The notes under the pieces are model-generated. The model was not told the DNA's origin. It saw only the letters and a list, made by a program, of their open reading frames with translations, and made no database searches. From contig SVTR01000014.1 in assembly GCA_015063685.1 (NCBI GenBank), positions 2,717-66,716 of the forward strand: 64,000 bases of DNA, read 5' to 3'. The stretch comes from Oscillospiraceae bacterium. GTDB lineage: Bacteria > Bacillota > Clostridia > Oscillospirales > CAG-272. A program made the position numbers and the translations under genes. Shown here piece after piece: positions 7,733-61,373 of this stretch. Numbering within the stretch: position 1 is the first letter of the stretch; each line of letters starts with the position of its first letter.

Positions 7733-9490
7733 TTACGCAAGCTCGGCAGCCGTCAGCTGAGACTGCGCGATCTCGCGGTAGACGGGGCAGCTTTCCATCA
7801 GCTCGTCGTGTGTGCCGATACCGACCGCCTCACCGCGCTCAAGCACGATGATCTTATCAGCGTCTCGAATGGTGCTGATACGTTGCGCGACGATGACCTT
7901 GGTGGTATCCGACAGCTCCTTTGCAAGTCCGTGGCGAAGCGTTGCGTCGGTCTTATAGTCAAGTGCCGAGAAGGAATCGTCAAAGATCAGTATTTCGGGC
8001 TTTCTTGCAAGAGCGCGGGCGATGGAAAGCCGTTGCTTCTGTCCTCCCGACACGTTCTTACCAAGCTGTACGATTCGGTGCTCCTTACCACCCTCGGTCT
8101 TATCCACAAATTCCTTTGCCTGAGAGAGCGAGATCGCCATATCCACCGTTTCCTCGTCAAAGCCATCTTGGCTTTCACCAAAGGTAATATTCTCTCGGAT
8201 ACTGCCCGCAAACAAGACCGCCTTTTGGGTGATATATCCGATCTTGTTATATAAGCCGTCAAAGGAATAATCCTTGACGTTCACTCCGTCTACAAGGACT
8301 TCACCCTTAGTAGCATCATAGAAACGCGCGATCAAGGAAATGAGCGTCGTTTTACCGCATCCCGTTGCGCCGATGATGGCAAGCGTCTGCCCCTTTTCAA
8401 TGCGGAAGGAGATATCGGAAATAGCCTCCTCTTGTGCCTCGGGATAAGCAAAGGATACGTTTTTGAACTCTACAGTTCCAACCTCGTCGGCACTGCTATT
8501 TGTACCCTCGGTGACGGTTGCCTGTCTGTCAAGCACCTCGTTGATACGTTCCGCCGAGACCTGCGCGGCGGGAAGCATCATAAACACCATGACCATCATC
8601 ATAAAGGACATGACCACGTAGGTCGCATAGGTGCTGAACACGACAACGTCGCTGAACATCGCAATTCTGCCCGCAACGTCGGTAAGTGCGATTTGATTGA
8701 TGAGAGCCGCGCCGAGCCAATAGATCGCTAAGGACAGACCGTTCATACAGGTTCCCATCACAGGCTGCATCAAGGAGAATAGGCGTTGATTTTTCAACTG
8801 CGTGTTCATCATCTCGGTGTTGGGCACGTCAAACTTTTCGGTCTGATAGCCTTCCGCATTGAAGGCGTGGACCACGTTGATGCCCGTCAGATTCTCTCTT
8901 GCCATACGGTTCTGCGTATCGGTCAGCTTCTGAACCTTACGGAAACGAGGCAAACAAACCGACATAATGGCAAGGACTGTTGTGCATATCACAACTACTG
9001 CGGATGCCGTTACGGCAGACAGCTCCCAGCTCTTGCCGAGGATCTTGATGATCGCCCATACCGCCATGATCGGTGCTTTTACGAGCGATTGCAAGCCCAT
9101 AACGACGATCATCTGCAATTGGGTGATGTCGTTGGTCGTTCTTGTAATCAAGCTCGGAATTGAGAACTTGGACGTTTCGGCTTTTCCAAGCAGCATGACG
9201 TGGGAAAACAGCTTTTCTCTGACGGCATAGCTATATCCTGCGGCAATGCGCGAGGTCAAAAATCCGCAAGCGATCGCAAGTGCCGCACTTGCAAGCGTAC
9301 ATCCGAGCATTTTCGCGCCCACAGTCAGAATATCTGCCATTTCACTTCCGGGGGTATTGATCAAAACCGTCAAATCACTCATAAAGTCTGGCATCGTCAA
9401 ATCAAAATAGATCTGTCCGATGATCAAAGCAATACAACCGAGAACCATCCACCGTTCCCGCTTTTTCATGTATTTCAGCAATTTGAGCAT
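7733..9490 (-). CDS. ABC exporter, fused permease/ATPase (heterodimer subunit)
   Basis: Six TM helices plus NBD with Walker A GATGCGKTT, signature SGGQKQR and Walker B IFDDSFS (degenerate-site type, typical of heterodimeric exporters). Confidence 0.9.
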   Translation of the reverse strand: MLKLLKYMKKRERWMVLGCIALIIGQIYFDLTMPDFMSDLTVLINTPGSEMADILTVGAKMLGCTLASAALAIACGFLTSRIAAGYSYAVREKLFSHVMLLGKAETSKFSIPSLITRTTNDITQLQMIVVMGLQSLVKAPIMAVWAIIKILGKSWELSAVTASAVVVICTTVLAIMSVCLPRFRKVQKLTDTQNRMARENLTGINVVHAFNAEGYQTEKFDVPNTEMMNTQLKNQRLFSLMQPVMGTCMNGLSLAIYWLGAALINQIALTDVAGRIAMFSDVVVFSTYATYVVMSFMMMVMVFMMLPAAQVSAERINEVLDRQATVTEGTNSSADEVGTVEFKNVSFAYPEAQEEAISDISFRIEKGQTLAIIGATGCGKTTLISLIARFYDATKGEVLVDGVNVKDYSFDGLYNKIGYITQKAVLFAGSIRENITFGESQDGFDEETVDMAISLSQAKEFVDKTEGGKEHRIVQLGKNVSGGQKQRLSIARALARKPEILIFDDSFSALDYKTDATLRHGLAKELSDTTKVIVAQRISTIRDADKIIVLERGEAVGIGTHDELMESCPVYREIAQSQLTAAELA

Positions 9491-9497
9491 CTTGAAA

Positions 9498-9938
9498 TTA
9501 TTTCTCCTTTATGATCTTATCAATATTTGCATCCATCAATTTGAAGCAACGCTCCATTACGGCGCGATCCTCCTCGCTGATTCCCTCAAGCACGGCACTC
9601 GCAAACTGAATCTGACGTGCTCTTCCAAGCTCTACGATCTTTGTTGCCTTCTCTGTACATACAAGGGCGTCCTTTCTTCTGTCTCCGGGAACGGCTCGTC
9701 TTTCAATGTATCCCCCCTGCACCAAACTCTCAACGTGAGCGGATACCACGGGGCGCTTCAGTCCTCTCATATCGCAAATATAGCTTGCCGTAGCAAACTC
9801 GGGATTATTGGCAATAAAAAGAAGGATGCTGATCGCAGTATGGGGCATATCGGTTTCTTTAGCCAGTGGCAATAATGCCTTTTCGTATGCCAAGCCTATC
9901 TTTCTTGCGTGTCCATTCATTTCCTGAATCGTTATCAT
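9498..9938 (-). CDS. MarR-family transcriptional regulator
   Basis: 146-aa winged-helix protein (ICDMRGLKRPVVSAHVESLVQGGYIERRAVPGDRR), first gene of the operon with the two ABC genes. Confidence 0.85.
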   Translation of the reverse strand: MITIQEMNGHARKIGLAYEKALLPLAKETDMPHTAISILLFIANNPEFATASYICDMRGLKRPVVSAHVESLVQGGYIERRAVPGDRRKDALVCTEKATKIVELGRARQIQFASAVLEGISEEDRAVMERCFKLMDANIDKIIKEK

Positions 9939-9974
9939 AAAAAACTCCTTTTGTTCGTTTTTGAACTATTCCAT

Positions 9975-10003
9975 ATTATACTATTTGTAAATGTAATTGT
10001 CAA
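9975..10003 (-). promoter_or_regulatory. Consensus sigma-A promoter for marR-ABC, overlapped by an imperfect palindrome
   Basis: Minus strand TTGACA (10003..9998), 17 nt, TATAAT (9980..9975). TTGACAAT-TAC-ATTTACAA forms an imperfect inverted repeat over the -35 and spacer (possible MarR operator). Confidence 0.6.
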
Positions 10004-10054
10004 TGATGAAATTGTGAATTTTTATGAAGGTCAGTTGAAAGTTTTATTGCTAAC

Positions 10055-10093
10055 GCAAAAAGTAAGTGCAGACCGATTATTTCGATCTGCACT
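10055..10093 (-). terminator. Intrinsic terminator-like hairpin in the marR upstream region
   Basis: Minus-strand AGUGCAGA...UCUGCACU (10093..10065) followed by UACUUUUUG. Confidence 0.5.
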
Positions 10094-10177
10094 CGTTGAT
10101 TATAACATTGGTTGAATCACTAAAGATATTATCCTTGATTATCGCTCTCGCCGAGTATTTTAATAATCGACGTGACA

Positions 10178-10220
10178 AATAAAAGAAATAACCGCCTTCT
10201 TGCTGCAACTCGAGGCGGTT
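10178..10220 (-). terminator. Intrinsic terminator of the mini-cistron
   Basis: Minus-strand AACCGCC (10220..10214) / GGCGGUU (10196..10190) followed by AUUUCUUUUAUUU. The 5' arm contains the UAA of the 11-codon ORF. Confidence 0.7.
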
Positions 10221-10254
10221 AATTCTTTAACTTATTCGGGATAGCAACCGTCAT
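10219..10254 (-). CDS. 11-codon mini-ORF (MTVAIPNKLKN); candidate leader peptide or small RNA body
   Basis: GGAGAG SD sits 5 nt before the ATG. It lies between a perfect promoter and a terminator. It is too short to judge coding potential. Confidence 0.35.
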   Translation of the reverse strand: MTVAIPNKLKN

Positions 10255-10271
10255 CGGTTCTCTCCGTTATT

Positions 10272-10300
10272 ATTATATCACGACGAATCCGCTTTGTCAA
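10272..10300 (-). promoter_or_regulatory. Perfect consensus sigma-A promoter driving the mini-cistron
   Basis: Minus strand TTGACA (10300..10295), exactly 17 nt, TATAAT (10277..10272). Confidence 0.65.
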
Positions 10301-10544
10301 CTATTTTTTTGAACTTCATATGAGGGCTTTTTCGATCAGAAACGCTTTTTCTTTGATTGGTGACTCAGTTTTTGAGTCACCAATCTTTCTTCCATATCCT
10401 TTTGCGGCTGCTTCACCCAAGCGCTTTTGCCCCCATTCTTGACCATAGGCCGATTTGGAAGCGATGGAGTTAAGAGTGGTCCAAAGCGATCAAATCGGAG
10501 TGAAAACCACTACATATAGTTTTTTGGAGATAAAATACACTATA

Positions 10545-10705
10545 GGGCATCTCTAAATACTTAGTGTGCGGCGAGATGCGAGGGATTTTTTCGTCAGACT
10601 AAACAAAAATCTGCGCGCATAGTCGTCCCTATGCGAAAGAATTTTGTGACGTATGACGGAAAAAGCACCGTCATATCGGCGTGCGATGAGTTTTTAGAGA
10701 TGCCC
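10545..10705 (+). mobile_element. MITE family 1, copy A (161 bp)
   Basis: 13-bp perfect TIR GGGCATCTCTAAA / TTTAGAGATGCCC, flanked by TATA on both sides. By eye it differs from copy C at 2 positions. Confidence 0.85.
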
Positions 10706-10731
10706 TATACTTGCGCTTAGGGTAATAGAGA

Positions 10732-12963
10732 TCAGAAGTTCGGTGACAGAGCCAACGTTTCATTCGTTGGCTCTGTTTGGGGAGAAGCATCCTCCTCTCC
10801 TTCCGTCTTATCTTCAATATCTGTTGCTTGGGTAGACATCTCCTGCCAGACGGAAAAATGGAGATGACAGCAATCCGCGGGTTCTGTTCCCTCCACAAAC
10901 CACCCCACCATAGGTGGGTGCAGATCTCCCAGAGCGTCATAGCAATCCGGGGTAGCGATCTCTCCCGTCAGAGGACAAAGCTTGACGGGAACCACACCGT
11001 CACATACCTCAAAGGATGACCTCCTGTCGACGCCCCGATAGATCTTCTCGCAAGCCATCATGACGTCATCCCAGATATCAATGGAGGGATTGCCGATAAT
11101 GCCGTCCAAGGGTGCGGGATAGTCGTAGCCCATCCACACGCCGCAGAGCAGCTTGGGGGTATAGCCCACAAACCAGCGGTCACAGTTGTTCTGGGTAGTT
11201 CCTGTTTTACCCGCGGAGGGGATCCCCATCTCATCTGTCAAAAGCAACCCTGCGGCGGTACCATCCGACGTCACGGATGACAAAAGCTTGGTCATGACGC
11301 AAGCCTCGGCGGGAGACAGAACCCTTTCGCCCGTGGTGGAATTTTCCATGAGCACCCTTCCCTTTTCGTCCAGTACTCGGCGGTAGGAAATCGGTGGATG
11401 ATACACCCCCTCGGAGAAAATGGTATATCCCCCTGTCAACCCTCGTACGGTCACCCCCACGCTGTTCTGCCCCAACGCCAGGGAGGCTATGGTCATGTCT
11501 CCCACATTTTCCGCCGTGGGAGGTAAAAGCTCGCTTAAACGGAGGGTATCGTGAAGAAAATCAAAGGAGCGCTCCATCCCCACACGCCGCAAAATCTCCA
11601 CCGCAACCGTGTTCAAGGAATGGGAAACACTATCCCGTACCGTGACCCGTCCACGGTAGAGGCCATCCGCGTTTTGCGGCCAGGGACGCCCGTTCAGCTC
11701 TTCCAAGGGCACGTCCTCAAAAATACTGCTCCAAGTAATGACCCCATCCTTCAGGGCGGGGGTATATACGCTGAGGGGCTTGATGGCCGAGCCCGCGGGA
11801 CGGCGGGTCTGGGTGGCGTAATTTTGCAAATAGTATCCGTCTTTTTTTCCGATGGCACCCGCCACCGCCAGGATATCACCGGTATAGGGATCCATGATGA
11901 CGGCGGCAGATTGGGGTCTGCCATCGGTTCCCACAGGAAAATGCCCGATGGTTTCATAGTAGGACGTCAGGATTTCTTGAAGCGTCTCATCCATGGACGT
12001 TTCGATCCGAAGTCCGCCACTCGACAAAAGCAGCATGGCTCTTTCATAGCTGTAATCCAATCGCTCCTGCAAATCTCTCACCACGTCGGATATCACCATT
12101 TCTGTATACCAGGAGGTCACGGTGGTTGCGGACGAGGGCGCATCGCAGATCACCGGGGTTTCAGACATCGCCTCCGCGTACCGTACATCGTCAATATACC
12201 CCTGATCCCTCATCTCCCGCAGGATGATCTCCCGCCGCTGACGGTTTTCTTCGGGATGGGTGCGAGGATTGTAAAGGGTGGGGCGATTGGTGATGGCCGC
12301 TAAAGCGGCGCATTCTGCCAGGCTCAGCTCTGAGGGTTGCTTTTGAAAATAACAGGCAGACGCCGCCCCCACGCCCATACAACCGCTCCCCAAATTGATG
12401 ATATTAAGGTAGACCTCCAGGATCTTCCTTTTATCAGCTCTTCGCTCCAGGTCAAGGGCCGTAAACATCTCGGTCAGCTTTCTCTCGGGTGTCCGGTCAC
12501 GGTTCCCCGTGAGGTTTTTCACCACCTGCTGGGTGATGGTAGACCCTCCGAAGGAAGCGTTTCCCCGATGGATCAGATAATCCCAAACCGCATGGGCCGT
12601 TCGTTTGAAATCCACCCCTTCATGAGTAAAAAATCGTTTATCCTCAATGGCAACAAAGGCGTTGATCAGATCTTCGGGCACATCCTCGTAGGTCACAGGG
12701 ATCTGTTGGTGGATCTCCATCGGCAGTCCTTCGTCCAGCAAGTGATATCTGAACTCTCCCCCTCCCTTGGCTTCGGGATCCGCCGCATACAATCGGGCGG
12801 GGTTACTTTCCTCGTTCAAGGTCAAAAGACTCATATCCATGGTGGCACGGCTATAAGGCAACAGAAACAAAACCACTCCCACAACCGCCGTCATCAGCAG
12901 CAAAAAAAAGGTACACAGAACAACCAATAGTCGTTTTTTTCTTCTGATTTTTTTCTTTTTCAT
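10732..12963 (-). CDS. Class A penicillin-binding protein (PBP1A-type transglycosylase/transpeptidase)
   Basis: GT51 motifs AIEDKRFFTHEGVD and GGSTITQQ; transpeptidase SAIKP, SHSLN and KTGTT. ATG at 12963 (MKKKKIRRKK... then a TM helix) is preferred over the TTG at 13023. Confidence 0.9.
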   Translation of the reverse strand: MKKKKIRRKKRLLVVLCTFFLLLMTAVVGVVLFLLPYSRATMDMSLLTLNEESNPARLYAADPEAKGGGEFRYHLLDEGLPMEIHQQIPVTYEDVPEDLINAFVAIEDKRFFTHEGVDFKRTAHAVWDYLIHRGNASFGGSTITQQVVKNLTGNRDRTPERKLTEMFTALDLERRADKRKILEVYLNIINLGSGCMGVGAASACYFQKQPSELSLAECAALAAITNRPTLYNPRTHPEENRQRREIILREMRDQGYIDDVRYAEAMSETPVICDAPSSATTVTSWYTEMVISDVVRDLQERLDYSYERAMLLLSSGGLRIETSMDETLQEILTSYYETIGHFPVGTDGRPQSAAVIMDPYTGDILAVAGAIGKKDGYYLQNYATQTRRPAGSAIKPLSVYTPALKDGVITWSSIFEDVPLEELNGRPWPQNADGLYRGRVTVRDSVSHSLNTVAVEILRRVGMERSFDFLHDTLRLSELLPPTAENVGDMTIASLALGQNSVGVTVRGLTGGYTIFSEGVYHPPISYRRVLDEKGRVLMENSTTGERVLSPAEACVMTKLLSSVTSDGTAAGLLLTDEMGIPSAGKTGTTQNNCDRWFVGYTPKLLCGVWMGYDYPAPLDGIIGNPSIDIWDDVMMACEKIYRGVDRRSSFEVCDGVVPVKLCPLTGEIATPDCYDALGDLHPPMVGWFVEGTEPADCCHLHFSVWQEMSTQATDIEDKTEGEEDASPQTEPTNETLALSPNF

Positions 12964-13137
12964 ATGGTTTTGCCTTTCCCTGACGACATCCGCAATTTCT
13001 TTTTTCGGATCGAAGATGCCCAAAATAAATCGCCATTATTATATGTCAAAAGTGAATATTTACACCTGCGATGAGACATGATAATACCGACACGCAAGGC
13101 AGATTTTGCATTGAAAACCAAAAAGAAAGGGCATCTT

Positions 13138-13896
13138 ATGAAGACTATCACCAAAATCATCATTTTTTGTCTCATCGGCGTCACGCTGCTGGGCACGCTT
13201 CTGAACGTCGGATTTTTCTGCGAGCTTTACGCCGAGACCCGATCCATAGCGAAAAACAATCTCAGTCGCTGGATTTCCACCCAAAATGACCTGGATCGTC
13301 TGGAGGGGGCCATCTCGGTATTTTTTGATTTCAAGGGGAATCACTATCCCCAAAATACCCCAGAGAGTGAGGAGACACAAAAAATCCAAGAATTCGATAC
13401 CGCCGACGAAACCTCGGAAAGCACACCCGCAGAGACGGTAGCTATGACCGAACCTGCAACAGAGGCCGTGAGCGAGGCTGTCACCGAACCCGTGACCGAA
13501 GCCGCAACCGAAGAAGCTACAGAAGAGGTGACCGAAGTATTTGACAAAATAGATCCCGAAGATTCCACCGAGGCCGTTTTCGATGGAGAGACCGAGGCGG
13601 TGACTGATCCCCGGGAGGAAACAGAAACCGACGCGAATCAGTGGGACGAGCCCTCCGAAGAAGAAACCGCGAATACCGAGGAAACAGTAGCGGAAGTGGA
13701 TACAAGCGTCGGCATCATCTACACCATCAAAATCCACGACGGCATCATCGGCGTCTTTGACAATGAAGGCAATCTGTTGGACACCGTCAACGTGGTGGTC
13801 ATTACCCTGCCCATCGCTGACCGCGAAGCCCTGGATCGAGGCATCACCGCCTGCGGCACCGAGGAACTGCGCAAGATCCTGGAAAGAATTGCCTGA
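13138..13896 (+). CDS. Membrane-anchored hypothetical protein with an acidic T/E/A-rich linker and a small C-terminal domain
   Basis: N-terminal TM helix (MKTITKIIIFCLIGVTLLGTLL), ~130 aa of low complexity (TEPATEAVSEAVTEPVTEAATEEATEEV), then a ~60-aa folded-looking tail. No family recognised. Confidence 0.6.
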   Translation: MKTITKIIIFCLIGVTLLGTLLNVGFFCELYAETRSIAKNNLSRWISTQNDLDRLEGAISVFFDFKGNHYPQNTPESEETQKIQEFDTADETSESTPAETVAMTEPATEAVSEAVTEPVTEAATEEATEEVTEVFDKIDPEDSTEAVFDGETEAVTDPREETETDANQWDEPSEEETANTEETVAEVDTSVGIIYTIKIHDGIIGVFDNEGNLLDTVNVVVITLPIADREALDRGITACGTEELRKILERIA

Positions 13897-13908
13897 CCAT
13901 GAACAACT

Positions 13909-13966
13909 ATTAACAAAAGGGAACCTCTAAAAACTCCATTGATGAGCAAGCCGCAAGGGAGTTTTT
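13909..13966. mobile_element. MITE family 2, minimal 58-bp copy (E)
   Basis: GGGAACCTCTAAAAACTC ... GAGTTTTTAGAGGTGACC inverted ends, flanked by AAAA on both sides. Confidence 0.7.
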
Positions 13967-13984
13967 AGAGGTGACCAAAAAAGC

Positions 13985-14020
13985 ATCTAAAAAACCTCGC
14001 GAGGCCCATAGTGGCCAAGC
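13985..14020 (+). terminator. Intrinsic terminator
   Basis: CCTCGC (13985..13990) / GCGAGG (14009..14014) followed by TTTTCT. Confidence 0.55.
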
Positions 14021-14033
14021 GAGGTTTTCTTAT

Positions 14034-14194
14034 GGGCATCTCTAAATACTCAGCGTGCGGCGAGATGCGAGGGATTTTTTCGTCAGACTAAACAAAAATC
14101 TGCACGCATAGTTGACCCTATGCGAAAGAATTTTGTGACGTATGACGGAAAAAGCACCGCTATATCGGCGTGCGATGAGTTTTTAGAGATGCCC
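14034..14194 (+). mobile_element. MITE family 1, copy B (161 bp)
   Basis: Same TIRs as copy A, flanked by TTAT on both sides. Its end lies 6 nt from the murE stop codon. Same subfamily as copy D (central hairpin loop TTGACC). Confidence 0.85.
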
Positions 14195-14200
14195 TTATGA

Positions 14201-15709
14201 TCAGGAATTGCCCGAAGCATAGTCCGAAAGAGCATTCAGCAGAACGTTTTTCTCACGGTACGCCACCTTTTGCTCTCCAACGAGCTGGTAGGTCTCGTGC
14301 CCCTTGCCCGCAAGCAGGATCATATCCCCGGGCCTTGCGACAGAAACGGCATACGCCACCGCCTCGGTGCGGTCGGAGATCATCACACGGGGACAGCTCC
14401 CCTCCGGGTACGCAGCGTCGATTTCCCGAAGGATGGCCTCGGGATCCTCTCGCCCGGGGTTGTCCGAGGTCAGGATGCAAAGATCGGCACGGATCCCCGT
14501 CACCTCGGCCAGCTCCCGACGCCGTTCCTTGGTACGCTCTCCCACAGAGCCGAAAAGACAGATCAGTCTCTCAGGGTGGTAGCTCCGCAACAGATCCAGC
14601 ATGGAGGCCATGCTGACGGCGTTGTGGGCGTAGTCGATGACATACAACACATGATCGTGGAAGACCGTCTCGAACCGCCCGGGGACGGTGGCCGTCTCCA
14701 GACTTTTACAGGCGTTCTCTACGGGTATACCATAGATCAGATGAGCCATGGCCATGGCACACAGGGCGTTTTTGACGTTGAACTCCCCCGGCTGAGGCAA
14801 AAAATGCATATGGGACAAGGCAAGGCCTTGAATTTTCAGGCCGTATTCCATGCCGGGGATGCCGTTTCGGATGACCCCTTGGATGGCCGTGGTGGTCCAG
14901 GCGGCGTCGGGGTGTCCCTTCGTGGAAAAGCCGACGATATCGGCAGGATCACCTTTCGTCATATCAGGCAAAGCGGGATCATCCAGGTTGCAAACCGTGA
15001 AATCGTGGGGATAGTCGGTAAACAGACGGTGCTTACAGGCGGCATAGTCGGCCATATCGGGATGCTCGTTGCCGCCAATGTGATCCGGAGAGAGATTGGT
15101 GAAAGCACAGACACGGAAGGAAAGGCCATAGGTGCGGTAAAGCTTGAGGCCCTGGGAGGAAACCTCCATCACCGCGGCGATCATCCCAGCATCCAGCATC
15201 TCACGTAAATATGCGTAGATCAGGAGGCTGTCAGGGGTGGAATTGACGGTAGGGTAGTGCTTGTCACCGAAAATAATGCCGTTCGTCCCCATGTAACCCG
15301 TAGGAACACCTGCATCGTTCAGAATTTTTTGAAGGAACAAGGCGGTGGTGGTTTTCCCCTTCGTGCCCGTGATGGCGAACAAGTCCATTTCCCGTTCGGG
15401 ATGTCCGTAAAAGGCGGCGGCAGCTTCAGCTTCCGCGATGCGGGTATCGGGAACTAGGATCTGCAACGCGTCGTCGGGCAAATCCAGAATTCGCTCCACC
15501 AGAAAATATCGACAGCCCTGATCATAGGCCTTCCGCGCATAGGCATGACCGTCGGAGGTAAAGCCCTTGATGCATACAAAAAGGCTGTCCTCTGAGGATT
15601 TTCTCGAATCCACGCAGACGGCAGATACGCCGGCTTTTTTCGAGGGTGCTTGCCCCGAGAGCGTGGCGTTTGACAGCTCCGCTATGATGGAAAATAAGGA
15701 AACGGACAT
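14201..15709 (-). CDS. murE: UDP-N-acetylmuramoyl-L-alanyl-D-glutamate--2,6-diaminopimelate ligase
   Basis: Mur ligase P-loop ITGTKGKTTT and C-terminal TSDNPGRED (DNPR-type, meso-DAP adding). ATG at 15709 follows AAGGA. Confidence 0.85.
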   Translation of the reverse strand: MSVSLFSIIAELSNATLSGQAPSKKAGVSAVCVDSRKSSEDSLFVCIKGFTSDGHAYARKAYDQGCRYFLVERILDLPDDALQILVPDTRIAEAEAAAAFYGHPEREMDLFAITGTKGKTTTALFLQKILNDAGVPTGYMGTNGIIFGDKHYPTVNSTPDSLLIYAYLREMLDAGMIAAVMEVSSQGLKLYRTYGLSFRVCAFTNLSPDHIGGNEHPDMADYAACKHRLFTDYPHDFTVCNLDDPALPDMTKGDPADIVGFSTKGHPDAAWTTTAIQGVIRNGIPGMEYGLKIQGLALSHMHFLPQPGEFNVKNALCAMAMAHLIYGIPVENACKSLETATVPGRFETVFHDHVLYVIDYAHNAVSMASMLDLLRSYHPERLICLFGSVGERTKERRRELAEVTGIRADLCILTSDNPGREDPEAILREIDAAYPEGSCPRVMISDRTEAVAYAVSVARPGDMILLAGKGHETYQLVGEQKVAYREKNVLLNALSDYASGNS

Positions 15710-16204: not shown

Positions 16205-16469
16205 TAAATTGTTGTTTAGCGTGGGCTTACTATGAACCCGTAGGGGCGAACTGCGTTCGCCCGCCGTTCTCCAAAAGCCTTTGCTTATCAATATACTTTT
16301 TATTACGGGCGAACACAGTTCGCCCCTACGACCACGTTGGTCAGAAAACCGTAAACAACAATTTATCCGCCCAACTACCCATTGCGGGATGCGGTACGCA
16401 CAGGATGCACTACCCCGAGCGTTGGCCGCGGCACGGCCGCCCCCACCGCAGGTGGTAAACAACAATTTA
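16205..16469 (+). repeat. Mosaic repeat array 1: TIR/REP-doublet element (module I, 16205..16365) plus half-palindrome module II
   Basis: Boundaries are AAATTGTTGTTT (16206) and AAACAACAATTT (16353, 16457), with TA at the outer flanks. Internal REP doublet 16240..16329 (GTAG-GGGCGAAC-TGC-GTTCGCCC ... GGGCGAAC-ACA-GTTCGCCC-CTAC). Confidence 0.85.
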
Positions 16470-16555: not shown

Positions 16556-17134
16556 ATGAAAAAAAACAGTATTTACCAGCTATTTTCCCATATTCCTACC
16601 CTGGAGACTCCGCGTTTGACCCTACGCGGCATGCGCGTCTCAGATGCTGAAGACATGTTTGCCTATGCGCAGCATGAGCCCGTTACCCGCTTTCTCACCT
16701 GGACGCCTCATCCCAATATCAAGCACACCAAAGAATATTTGACCTATGTGGGTCAGCGATATCGCACGGGGGATTTCTTTGACTGGGCGGTCGTCTGTAA
16801 GAAAGACAGCCGCATGATCGGCACCTGCGGATTTACGTCCTTTAATTTCTCCTCGGATTCAGCTGAGATCGGATACGTGATAAATCCCGACTACCAAGGA
16901 CAGGGTCTTGCCACCGAAGCGGTGCAAGAGGTCATCCGCTTTGGATTTGAGAATCTGTCACTCCATCGCATTGAAGCCAAGTTCATGCAAGAAAATACCC
17001 GCTCCAGGCGGCTCATGGAGCGGGTGGGTATGCAATTTGAAGGGTATGCGCGGGAATCCATGAAAATCAAAGGTGAATACCGCACCATCGGAAGGTGCGG
17101 AATCCTCAAGAGAGAGTGGGAGGAAGCAAGGTAA
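16556..17134 (+). CDS. GNAT-family N-acetyltransferase (RimJ/RimL-like)
   Basis: 192 aa with acetyl-CoA motif QGQGLATEA and LHRIEAKF. GGGAGG SD. The TAA stop (17132..17134) is shared with the first bases of repeat array 2. Confidence 0.85.
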   Translation: MKKNSIYQLFSHIPTLETPRLTLRGMRVSDAEDMFAYAQHEPVTRFLTWTPHPNIKHTKEYLTYVGQRYRTGDFFDWAVVCKKDSRMIGTCGFTSFNFSSDSAEIGYVINPDYQGQGLATEAVQEVIRFGFENLSLHRIEAKFMQENTRSRRLMERVGMQFEGYARESMKIKGEYRTIGRCGILKREWEEAR

Positions 17135-17469
17135 ATGTTGTTGCCGGCCGTGCCGGCTGCCAAAGCTCGGGGGAGTATATCATATGCCTACTGCATCACG
17201 CGATGGGTGGTTAGGCAGCTAAATTGTTGTTTAGCGGAGGTTTAATGAAAACCCGTAGGGGCGAACTGCGTTCGCCCGCCGTCCCCCAAAAGCCTTTGCT
17301 TATCAATATACTTTTTATTACGGGCGAACACAGTTCGCCCCTACGACCATGTTGCTCAGAAAACCGTAAACAACAATTTATCTGACCAACTGCCCATCGC
17401 GGTATGTGGCCTGCATGGGTTGAATAACCCCGAGCCAAAGCCCCACCGCGGGTGGTAAACAACAATTTA
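17132..17469. repeat. Mosaic repeat array 2: II' (inverted) - module I (17220..17380) - II palindromic composite
   Basis: Boundary motifs at 17133 (degenerate AAATGTTGTTG), 17221, 17368 and 17457. REP doublet 17255..17344. The left and right arms are diverged inverted copies of each other. Confidence 0.85.
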
Positions 17470-38138: not shown

Positions 38139-38643
38139 TAAATTGTTGTTTGCGTGGGCTTACTATGAACCCGTAGGGGCGAACTGCGTTCGCCCGCCGT
38201 TCCCCAAAAGCCTTTGCTTATCAATATACTTTTTATTACGGGCGAACACAGTTCGCCCCTACGACCATGTTGCTCAGAAAACCGCAAACAACAATTTTGT
38301 TGACCAACGCTCCATCGTGGTATGTGGTACGCATAGGATGCACTACCCCGAGCGGTGGCAGGCGGCACAGCCGCCAAACAACAATTTATTTGACCGCCAT
38401 CTCTTGCGGAAAGACGGTTGGCAAGAAGCAACCTTCTTCGGCATTTTGGGGCGGGCACTGCCCGCAAACAACAGGGCATCTCTAAATACTCAGTGTGCGG
38501 CGAGATGCGAGGGATTTTTTCGTCAGACTAAACAAAAATCTGCGCGCATAGTCGTCCCTATGCGAAAGAATTTTGTGACGTATGACGGAAAAATCACCGT
38601 CATATCGGCGTGCGATGAGTTTTTAGAGATGCCCAACAATTTA
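38139..38643 (+). repeat. Mosaic repeat array 3: module I (38139..38297) + II + III, interrupted by MITE copy C
   Basis: Boundary motifs AAATTGTTGTTT at 38140 and AAACAACAATTT at 38286, 38376 and 38466 (exactly 90-bp phasing). REP doublet 38173..38262. The last motif is split by the MITE, with an AACA duplication. Confidence 0.85.
38474..38634 (+). mobile_element. MITE family 1, copy C (161 bp), nested in array 3
   Basis: Same TIRs, flanked by AACA on both sides. Its end lies 6 nt from the stop codon of the flippase gene. Confidence 0.85.
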
Positions 38644-60411: not shown

Positions 60412-60936
60412 CTAATTACGCACTGATTTTTTGTCATCATAATACCACGCACGTGGATTATTGATAATATATTTTCTTGTTTCATAGAGATCGTCTTGAT
60501 TCCGAATCATATGATCGAAATAACTTCGTTGCCAAAAAGATTTGTTATACGGCTCGTATATCCCTTCCTTTACACCGCGAATATATTCATTGGTTGTCAT
60601 AGTCTTGAACCAATCTACGACGTCCTGTAGGGGCGACCCTGTGTGGTCGCCCGTAAAAAACAGAATAGCGTGAATATGATCGGGCATAATAACATATTCA
60701 TCAATTTCCGTGTTCGGAAACTTGTTTTCTATTTCAAGCAACCATTTTTCAATCATCCGATCAGGCTTGTTCGGGCGACCACGCAGGGTCGCCCCTACGG
60801 AATGATCCCACACGATTTCGCCAAATAAGGATTGTCTGTTATGAGTACATATCGTAATAAAGTAGGATCCTTGCTTTGAGTAATCGAGTCCTTTTACTCG
60901 CATCCGTTTTCTTTGCGGATATTGAGGGTTCTCCAT
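60412..60936 (-). CDS. REP-associated tyrosine transposase (RAYT; Y1 HUH, IS200-like superfamily)
   Basis: YFITICT beta-strand, HUH motif PDHIHAIL and catalytic Tyr context WQRSYFDHMIRN (compare the RAYT pattern RRYWEHxIRD). GGAGGGA SD before the ATG at 60936. The upstream part of the track ORF only reads through REP copies. Confidence 0.8.
   Translation of the reverse strand: MENPQYPQRKRMRVKGLDYSKQGSYFITICTHNRQSLFGEIVWDHSVGATLRGRPNKPDRMIEKWLLEIENKFPNTEIDEYVIMPDHIHAILFFTGDHTGSPLQDVVDWFKTMTTNEYIRGVKEGIYEPYNKSFWQRSYFDHMIRNQDDLYETRKYIINNPRAWYYDDKKSVRN
60627..60798. repeat. REP doublet embedded in-frame in the RAYT coding sequence
   Basis: GTAG-GGGCGACC-CTGTGT-GGTCGCCC on the plus strand (60627..60652, encodes GDHTGSPLQ) and its inverted partner at 60773..60798 (encodes VGATLRGRP). 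They are 25 of 26 complementary to each other. Confidence 0.85.
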
Positions 60937-60996
60937 ATTCTTGTATCCCTCCTTTTCCACATTTGCTTTGAAAACTATCACGGACACCATGATTCT

Positions 60997-61107
60997 GTAG
61001 GGGCGACCCTGTGTGGTCGCCCGCAAAAACAAACGCGAAATAGTATTATAGCATACGATAATTATCACAAGGGTTGAACACGGGCGACCACGCAGGGTCG
61101 CCCCTAC
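60997..61107. repeat. REP doublet between the T-box terminator and the RAYT start
   Basis: 60997..61022 is identical to 60627..60652, and 61082..61107 is identical to 60773..60798. The 59-nt AT-rich spacer contains TGCTATAAT on the minus strand (61053..61045). Confidence 0.85.
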
Positions 61108-61116
61108 AGATACGCT

Positions 61117-61351
61117 ATAAAACAAAACCCCGAAGGCTATCACAAAACAGCCTCCGGGGTGCATTTTTACAAAACACACGGTTCCACCCGAATATTTCAC
61201 TCATGGGCGCGCCCAAAAAAGCGCAGTTGCCCTATTCAGTTGGGTCACAAAAGGGCGGTACCTGCCCGAGCTTTTGCGTGGGAACTTACAGCCGATCCGT
61301 TTGGAAAGGTTCCCTTCTCTGTCGCTACCCCTCGGGGGCATATTCCTTTTG
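61117..61351 (-). promoter_or_regulatory. T-box riboswitch leader (candidate Thr ACC specifier)
   Basis: Stem I base CAAAAGG (61351..61345) / CCUUUUG (61254..61248), AG bulge AGCGA (61326..61322), ACC followed by a purine at 61259..61256, T-box GGGUGGAACCGUG (61189..61177) with a UGGAACC bulge in an antiterminator, and a competing terminator 61159..61128 plus a U-tract. Confidence 0.8.
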
Positions 61352-61373
61352 GTGGGCGGATGCCCGTAATTGA

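Follow-up and report, generated by a model that had tools for sequence, protein, structure and literature searches.

In-frame REP hairpins bracketing the HUH motif of a clostridial RAYT gene: evidence for conservation as DNA elements

Why would a gene for a transposase associated with repetitive extragenic palindromes (REPs) carry copies of a REP inside its own reading frame, one on each side of the codons for its HUH motif? The question is raised by a locus in a stretch of 64,000 nt from an Oscillospiraceae bacterium (GCA_015063685.1, contig SVTR01000014.1, positions 2,717-66,716 of the forward strand; hereafter the window). In it, an open reading frame (ORF) and its translation, profile matches, an AlphaFold2 model and Foldseek identify the coding sequence (CDS) of a REP-associated tyrosine transposase (RAYT), a TnpAREP-like Y1/HUH enzyme, at 60412-60936 of the minus strand. 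The CDS starts with the ATG at 60936, behind the ribosome-binding site GGAGGG, ends with the stop codon at 60412-60414 and encodes 174 aa. From sequence comparisons we argue that the embedded hairpins are old and have been kept and selected as DNA rather than mainly as peptide. Most likely they are kept as the recognition sites of the RAYT itself, and we give a probability of roughly 0.6 to the view that the locus is a REPtron with the enzyme's own recognition element as part of the gene.

The REP pattern GGGCGACC-N6-GGTCGCCC was sought in the whole window, with 100 shuffles as control, and has exactly four matches (60631-60652, 60773-60794, 61001-61022 and 61082-61103). By chance, 0.02 matches would be expected in a window, and at least four matches occurred in 0 of the 100 shuffles. 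Including the GTAG/CTAC tag, these elements are 26-mers at 60627-60652, 60773-60798, 60997-61022 and 61082-61107, the former two inside the RAYT gene. Intragenic REP1 (60773-60798, minus strand) reads GTAG+GGGCGACC-CTGCGT-GGTCGCCC on the coding strand and, in phase 0 from 60798 to 60773, encodes V47-P55 (VGATLRGRP). Intragenic REP2 (60627-60652, plus strand) reads GGGCGACC-ACACAG-GGTCGCCC+CTAC on the coding strand, its GTAG being on the non-coding strand; from 60652 to 60627 it begins at base 2 of codon 95 and encodes (T95)G96-Q104 (GDHTGSPLQ). Both copies are complementary at 25 of 26 positions, with C versus T in the loop as sole mismatch, and they are inverted with their tags outermost, the same layout as in the extragenic doublets of the window, over a span of 172 nt. 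The 120-nt segment between them (60653-60772, minus strand) encodes residues 56-95, comprising helix αA, a β-strand and the HUH strand, with the HUH codons H87-I88-H89 at 60670-60678 (minus strand).

The remaining two matches form a REPIN-like doublet (REPINs being REP doublets that can form one long hairpin) of 111 nt upstream of the gene (60997-61107, minus strand), with a 59-nt spacer and 61-171 nt before the ATG. Its tags also lie at the outer ends, the GTAG of 61082-61107 on the gene's strand and that of 60997-61022 on the other, and its arms are 97% complementary. Copy 60627-60652 is identical to 60997-61022 (26/26), as is 60773-60798 to 61082-61107 (26/26). All coordinates, identities and encoded peptides of the two doublets agree with the original prediction, made from the window sequence; the 26-nt identity that it reported between upstream and intragenic copies stands as such, with the likeness reaching a few bases further (CTGTAG...CCCG[T/C]AAAAA, 34/35) and the spacers otherwise unrelated. 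No tagged REP was found within about 1 kb downstream of the RAYT gene. The GC content of the REPs is 75%, against 37% for the gene minus the REPs, 40.8% for the whole gene and 52.8% for the remaining window, which makes the predicted picture of GC-rich spikes in a gene of about 35% GC roughly right.

That this minus-strand gene encodes a RAYT-type Y1/HUH protein was borne out by several comparisons. The Pfam profile Y1_Tnp (PF01797, cut-off 23 bits) matched with 39.2 bits and E=8.8e-10. A phmmer search against the Protein Data Bank gave a marginal match to the Escherichia coli TnpAREP (4ER8, E=0.024), in the alignment of which Y156 and N160 take the places of Y115 and N119. The residues listed as GTAG contacts of the E. 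coli enzyme in a survey of this family (PMC6006769), W94, Q95, W99, E100, H101 and R104, align with W135, Q136, F140, D141, H142 and R145, which would be their counterparts here. The putative catalytic Y156 (codon at 60469-60471, minus strand) as well as H87 and H89 are invariant in an alignment of 45 homologues. An AlphaFold2 model built with the same 45 homologues (mean predicted local distance difference test score 84, predicted template modelling score 0.78) was searched with Foldseek, and the top match was again 4ER8_A (E=3e-7), followed only by transposases of the insertion sequence (IS) family IS200/IS605, with all of the best 30 matches being Y1 transposases.

In this model Y156 lies within helix 147-173, and the protein ends 18 residues past Y156, within that last helix and without a C-terminal extension. 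The REP1 residues 47-55 are predicted to form the second strand (50-53) and the turns of a small β-hairpin after β1, and the REP2 residues 95-102 the loop that leads from the HUH strand (87-94) to helix αC (103-123). The window contains one RAYT copy according to tblastn, and its mgsA-linked position is common to homologues of 98%, 89% and 74% identity.

A protein search returned 2,648 homologues, from which 45 of 51-98% identity were aligned and 120 listed homologues were used for variant counts. DNA was obtained for 11 homologues through exact-protein look-ups plus one genome locus; a metagenome scan for close relatives yielded only distant homologues (28-44% identity). The segments encoded by the REPs had been suspected to be hypervariable or lineage-specific insertions. 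The 45-homologue alignment contradicts this, as few parts of the subfamily are as well conserved as VGATL[CR]GRP and TGDH.GSPL. Their codons are conserved as well. In the window gene and the 11 homologues, those of REP1 (GTA GGG GCG ACC CTR YGT GGT CGC CCG) and REP2 (ACG GGC GAC CAC nnn GGG TCG CCC CTA CAG) are near-invariant, while neighbouring codons, such as those of the adjacent Asn and Pro, vary synonymously. Pairwise synonymous codon identity, computed for 11 sequences (the window gene and 10 homologues with identities of 55-89%; L096, being near-identical, was omitted), was 0.86 in the 18 REP codons versus 0.46 in 89 other conserved codons (Mann-Whitney p=2e-8). Moreover, the REP codons are GC-rich, whereas the rest of the gene favours AAA, GAT and TAT.

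The stems change only through paired compensatory substitutions, which alter amino acids. REP1 of L106 and L114 is GGGCGGCC-CTGCGT-GGCCGCCC (GGCC/GGCC), a perfect palindrome encoding VGAALRGRP, and REP1 of L107 is GGGCGCAC-CTGCGT-GTGCGCCC (GCAC/GTGC), also a perfect palindrome, encoding VGAHLRVRP. Homologues that encode the same peptides with non-palindromic DNA did not appear, the palindromes being kept, nor was any other of the findings made that had been named as speaking against the prediction. In the 120 listed homologues each REP1 variant is accompanied, with few exceptions, by the REP2 variant that reverse complementarity demands: T..G goes with D..S (n=71), A..G with G..P (n=7), H..V with A..A (n=2) and N..V with E..S (n=1), the co-variation of the two main classes giving a Fisher p of 8e-8. 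The six loop bases, on the other hand, are variable (CTGCGT, CTGTGT or CTATGT) and independent between REP1 and REP2, as in the combinations CTGCGT/CTGTGT and CTATGT/CTGCGT. As single-stranded DNA the hairpins have folding energies of -9.7 to -10.4 kcal/mol (REP1, -9.9).

Orientation is the same in all 12 loci for which DNA was available, and the distance between REP1 and REP2 is 142 nt in 11 of them and 133 nt in one. Palindromes arising by chance or driven by the peptide were ruled out by the shuffle test, the synonymous-site test and the lineage-specific stems, and the dual constraint that had been proposed, on hairpin and protein alike, is supported by the frozen synonymous sites and the compensatory stem changes. 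Selection acts here on the GTAG tag and on the pairing of the stems, and the tag persists where the encoded amino acids change. An invariant GTAG, compensated stems and free loops constitute the conservation pattern expected of a REP that is read by its own RAYT.

The arrangement was followed across the family in 80 homologous loci found by a scan of a genome collection with the alignment, from Clostridia, Bacteroidota, Cyanobacteria, Chloroflexota, Nitrospirota, the candidate phyla radiation and other groups, each scanned for hairpins once without and once with regard to the tag. At least one GTAG-tagged, perfect and GC-rich hairpin was detected inside the CDS in 66 of the 80 loci. A split layout like that of the window, with the GTAG copy before the HUH codons and the CTAC copy after them, was present in 34/80; in 14/80 both copies follow the HUH codons, which is the published position, and 18 loci have one copy or another layout. 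The latter position, after HUH, is also that of the REPs in the relatives from Bacteroidota, Cyanobacteria, Chloroflexota and Nitrospirota that were found at E=1e-26 to 1e-47. With 34 of 80 loci showing the split layout, the architecture of the window is no singular event but the standard one in a large clade made up mainly of Clostridia. From these comparisons, the intragenic pair is not recent; it was present in the common ancestor of this clade and has been kept since.

Tagged hairpins are concentrated in these genes, with a density of 2.74/kb versus 0.19/kb in 1.06 Mb of flanks (about 14-fold), and the GTAG/CTAC tag accompanies 83 of 90 intragenic GC-rich hairpins compared with 115 of 434 extragenic ones. 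The GTAG copy comes first and the CTAC copy second in 28 of the 34 genes with at least two hairpins. More than 30 stem types were found between lineages; stems are identical within a gene in 29/50 cases, against 4.8% between genes, and the tag remains invariant across lineages whose stems are wholly different.

The presence of in-frame REPs in a RAYT gene is already published and is therefore not categorically new. Quentin, Siguier, Chandler & Fichant (2018, BMC Genomics 19:475, PMC6006769), describe subclass 2.4 as having a 'unique feature', REPs in frame within its tnpAREP genes, and view the insertions as peripheral and probably harmless. Subclass 2.4 is the equivalent of Group 4 in the RAYT classification by Bertels et al. 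2017, a group with flanking 16-mers of low abundance. The claim that the locus departs from classical REP/RAYT loci was hence half right: it does depart from them, in a manner that this account gives as a hallmark of subclass 2.4. In our search of the literature, the 2018 paper was the only one to deal with REPs inside RAYT genes.

Judged by the features described there, rather than by the authors' Markov clusters (MCL) or hidden Markov model profiles, the window gene resembles subclass 2.4 in being a Y1/HUH RAYT with canonical GTAG REPs beside and within the gene and the frame kept, in having one insertion in the loop between β3(HUH) and αC, in lacking a C-terminal extension, in the low abundance of its REPs, and in having its nearest non-clostridial relatives in Bacteroidota and Cyanobacteria, where 2.4 is reported as abundant. 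Indirect support for an assignment to 2.4 comes from the relatives at E=1e-26 to 1e-47 with REPs after HUH, compared with E=0.024 for the E. coli enzyme of subclass 2.2. The window gene differs from the published description, which is qualified by 'generally' and so leaves room for exceptions, in that, here and in the 34 split loci, one REP precedes the HUH codons and the pair brackets the catalytic strand, and in that both segments are highly conserved instead of variable. What goes beyond the 2018 description, as far as its treatment of this subclass extends, is the split around HUH, the depth of conservation in the family, the frozen synonymous sites and the mirrored compensatory changes.

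With respect to the upstream doublet, it occurs together with the intragenic pair in L096, L097 and L099 (homologues of 98% and 89% identity); in L101 (74%, at the same mgsA-linked locus) the intragenic pair is present and the upstream doublet absent. This pattern points to the intragenic pair as ancestral and to the upstream doublet as a younger extragenic copy, which may derive from the gene or from a different REPIN of the same genome. We also considered whether the doublet is left over from a duplicated RAYT gene and rejected this, as the tblastn and blastn likeness covers only the REPs and a few flanking bases, with unrelated spacers. Distant homologues have 0-2 extragenic copies, all but one at no more than about 150 nt from the gene. 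The loop of the reverse copy is mosaic among strains, being ACACAG or ACATAG in the upstream versus the intragenic element of the window, L096 and L099, and these bases hint at occasional conversion.

If the hairpins are the recognition sites of the RAYT, the intragenic REPs would provide the enzyme in cis with cognate sites to bind or cleave, and this linkage would keep the specificities of enzyme and substrate joined and co-inherited. The protein may also sense or limit its own gene through them. Possible consequences are that extragenic copies are reseeded from the gene and that the gene is subject to feedback. The fullest version of this idea is that the pair is a functional, selected cis-element, a protected master copy that co-evolves with enzyme specificity, serves for reseeding and maybe provides feedback by means of extruded hairpins or an mRNA duplex. 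We propose it only tentatively and consider it, taken as a whole, rather unlikely; were it true, the upstream doublet in the lineage of the window would exemplify reseeding.

Several observations weigh against a conserved recognition element. Its weakest point is that no GACC-type REP, the type of the window gene, was found in the other 63 kb of the 64-kb window, and about 165 kb of flanks from the GACC clade hold one copy at more than 200 nt from a gene; with GACC-type copies so scarce outside the gene, a substrate population for the enzyme is hypothetical. REP2 has been lost with the ORF intact in P0050, P0075, P0080 and other homologues, which implies that the REP pair is dispensable for the protein itself. 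Conservation of both stems would equally be needed by a long-range REP1:REP2 duplex, the predicted minimum free energy (MFE) fold of the mRNA. On the side of the data, the 80 loci were fetched by two peptide patterns and are hence a biased sample of RAYTs, and the synonymous-site test comprises 11 related sequences, its p value and the Fisher p both ignoring shared ancestry. Finally, the best NCBIfam match of the protein, REP_Tyr_transpos (NF047646), has 71.6 bits and lies under its cut-off of 80; the transpos_IS200 model, with 31.7 bits against a cut-off of 55, falls far below that score.

The explanation nearest to that of Quentin et al. 2018 is that the hairpins are tolerated passengers, REPs or REPINs lodged in two permissive surface sites and overwritten by conversion or re-insertion from the REPs of the genome. 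It is consistent with the published view of the insertions as having little impact on activity (PMC6006769), with the in-frame REPs of many unrelated genes (PMC3733652), with the several homologues that lost REP2 and kept their ORF, with slippage-type expansions and duplications at the REP2 site in P0063, P0089 and P0111, and with the mosaic ACACAG/ACATAG loops, which occasional conversion would give. Donors, however, are few: most loci of the split type lack an extragenic copy with the same stem within ±10 kb, and the GACC clade has only the single copy away from the gene already mentioned. Position, phase and the 142-nt spacing are moreover kept down to about 55% protein identity, which speaks for a single old event rather than insertions that recurred, and copies with identical stems can have different bases in up to 2 of the 6 loop positions, a pattern that conversion of the whole element would not leave. 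We regard passengers as an unlikely possibility.

Selection could alternatively act on the RNA, with a REP1:REP2 duplex of about 29 bp in the mRNA, or two hairpins, throttling translation or making a target for RNase III so that the nuclease is kept at a very low level. Both local hairpins and the long-range duplex, foreseen in the original prediction, can indeed be folded, and the MFE and centroid structures of the 231-nt segment are the duplex (-94.2 kcal/mol versus -61.8±4.5 for shuffles, z=-7.2). The co-variation of REP1 and REP2 variants and the GC content of the gene, 9-17 points under its flanks in 12 loci and fitting a gene of low expression, point in the same direction. Yet the loops, which are part of this duplex, do not co-vary between REP1 and REP2, pairing alone would not need a GTAG/CTAC tag fixed across lineages with different stems, and the REP2-less homologues L112 and L114 keep REP1 nearly perfect. 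Taken together, we consider a purely RNA-based role improbable.

A switch, in which the RAYT or host recombination deletes or inverts the HUH segment at the intragenic REPs and thereby turns the gene off, would account for substrate-like inverted hairpins on both sides of the catalytic segment and for the chimeric P0118, which joins two RAYT subfamilies near HUH/REP2. The related proposal of self-cleavage or self-excision of this segment met with no sign in the data, as all 12 DNA loci are intact, in the same orientation and with the spacing given above, and 0 of the 120 listed homologues lack the inter-REP segment. In IS608 excision proceeds on a single strand, and a mechanism of this IS200/IS605 type is not directly applicable to copies that lie on opposite strands. 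A switch is thus very improbable, and conservation of the hairpins as recognition sites of the RAYT is the reading that we retain.

Compared with better known systems, the locus combines familiar parts in a different order. It shares with the E. coli TnpAREP (Ton-Hoang et al. 2012; 4ER8, Messing et al. 2012) the fold, the HUH motif, the Tyr, the Asn and most of the GTAG-contact residues, and with the E. coli REPtron a REP made of GTAG and a GC-rich stem-loop. Unlike here, the REPs of E. coli flank the gene in hundreds of copies, with none inside it; the E. coli enzyme (subclass 2.2) shows marginal sequence similarity and has a C-terminal tail that the window protein lacks. The unit of the REPIN-RAYT systems of Pseudomonas and Enterobacteria (Bertels & Rainey 2011; Bertels et al. 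2017) is likewise an inverted REP doublet, and here too the RAYT is single-copy in the window and its mgsA-linked locus is kept at 74% identity. Both doublets of the locus consist, as REPINs do, of inverted REPs able to form one long hairpin. Those REPINs, however, are large extragenic populations, whereas the GACC-type elements are found only in or beside the gene, with no dispersed extragenic population in the 64-kb window and the ~165 kb of homologous flanks. Furthermore, what separates the two intragenic REPs as a 'spacer' is essential coding sequence of 120 nt. In genes with the split layout, the catalytic HUH segment would itself serve as the spacer of a REPIN.

Di Nocera et al. 2013 (PMC3733652) reported GTAG REPs within genes of other kinds. 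Those intragenic GTAG/CGTC REPs and the Rickettsia palindromic elements resemble the present case in that palindromes are translated in frame where the protein presumably tolerates them. They are, however, scattered in unrelated host genes and without evidence of long-term conservation, whereas here the host gene encodes the enzyme for such repeats and the element is conserved throughout a clade. The TnpA proteins of IS200/IS605 (IS608, ISDra2) share the HUH/Y1 fold and recognise subterminal single-strand hairpins; unlike the REPs of this gene, the IS hairpins are outside tnpA, on one strand, and delimit the mobile unit.

These results bear on the function of RAYTs and on the long-term matching between RAYT and REP. 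The 2018 report treated embedded REPs as a curiosity. With the present data they become a case in which selection on a DNA element within coding sequence can be put to the test, and a natural experiment on the co-evolution of enzyme and substrate, because the gene of each lineage records its own REP. It also follows that the alignment of this protein family is partly shaped by constraints at the DNA level. Finding VGATLCGRP and GDHTGSPLQ in proteins annotated as 'transposase' can serve as a signature of embedded REPs, the practical consequence being modest.

Regarding the surroundings of the gene, the spacer of the upstream doublet contains TGCTATAAT, an extended -10-like element read from the sequence at 61045-61053 (minus strand) and conserved in L096 and L099, which is a candidate promoter of the RAYT gene. 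A sigma-70 consensus scan upstream of the gene gave nothing convincing and did not call TGCTATAAT, which is without a good -35 element. If it were used, the 5' untranslated region would hold the reverse REP copy, complementary to REP1 in the CDS. Directly upstream of the doublet is a hairpin (61160-61127) that with its T-run resembles an intrinsic terminator (61117-61160, minus strand) and is conserved in four genomes. It forms the end of a structured, non-coding and leader-like region that separates mgsA from the REP doublet (61110-61373, minus strand; about 260 nt). Conservation of this region extends to L096, L099 and L101 and includes 7 compensatory pairs. In an Rfam search of the locus, apart from spurious microRNA-like matches to the long upstream hairpin, this region gave a sub-threshold match to the 3' part of a T-box leader (14 bits, E=0.5); the search yielded no RNA family that would account for the REPs. 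The RAYT gene and an ORF for a 172-aa membrane protein may thus lie between a divergent T-box-like leader and thrS, two genes downstream.

The low GC content of the RAYT gene is not peculiar to the window. In 12 of the 12 loci compared (window, L001, L096, L099, L101, L102, L104, L106, L107, L109, L112 and L114), the gene (31-44%) is 9-17 points under its flanks (42-58%) and tracks the GC content of the host; codon usage of low expression and mutational bias are possibilities for its source.

A second, related REP family, GTAG+GGGCGAAC-TG[C/T]-GTTCGCCC, of 23 nt and GAAC type, is present in the window as three identical inverted doublets (16240-16329, 17255-17344 and 38173-38262), two of which flank a GNAT acetyltransferase gene (16556-17134, plus strand) on both sides. 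No second RAYT for GAAC-type REPs was found in the window. In the homologous loci L044, L051 and L063 the intragenic REP1 is exactly the REP of this second family.

Several homologues show further variation in their REPs. In P0063 half-units of REP2 are expanded in tandem (TGDHxG repeated), P0089 and P0111 have two REP2 copies each, the junction of the chimera P0118 is located near HUH/REP2, and the frame of P0042 reads through upstream REPs of another type. The REP2 site appears to be prone to slippage and recombination, in line with the 'short repeats' that PMC6006769 mentions for subclass 2.4. A third in-frame REP was observed in two distant homologues, within the β1 region of L008 (YFVTICVNVGAHLCVRPHLFGKI; CDS 153-791) and at the extreme N-terminus of L057 (CDS 9932-10492). 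Finally, the homologue P0031 (59% identity; L109-L111, around 8231-15543) has its gene in a cluster for type I restriction-modification, with hsdM on one side, the genes up to hsdR on the other and a serine recombinase gene next to it, unlike the mgsA-thrS locus of the window.

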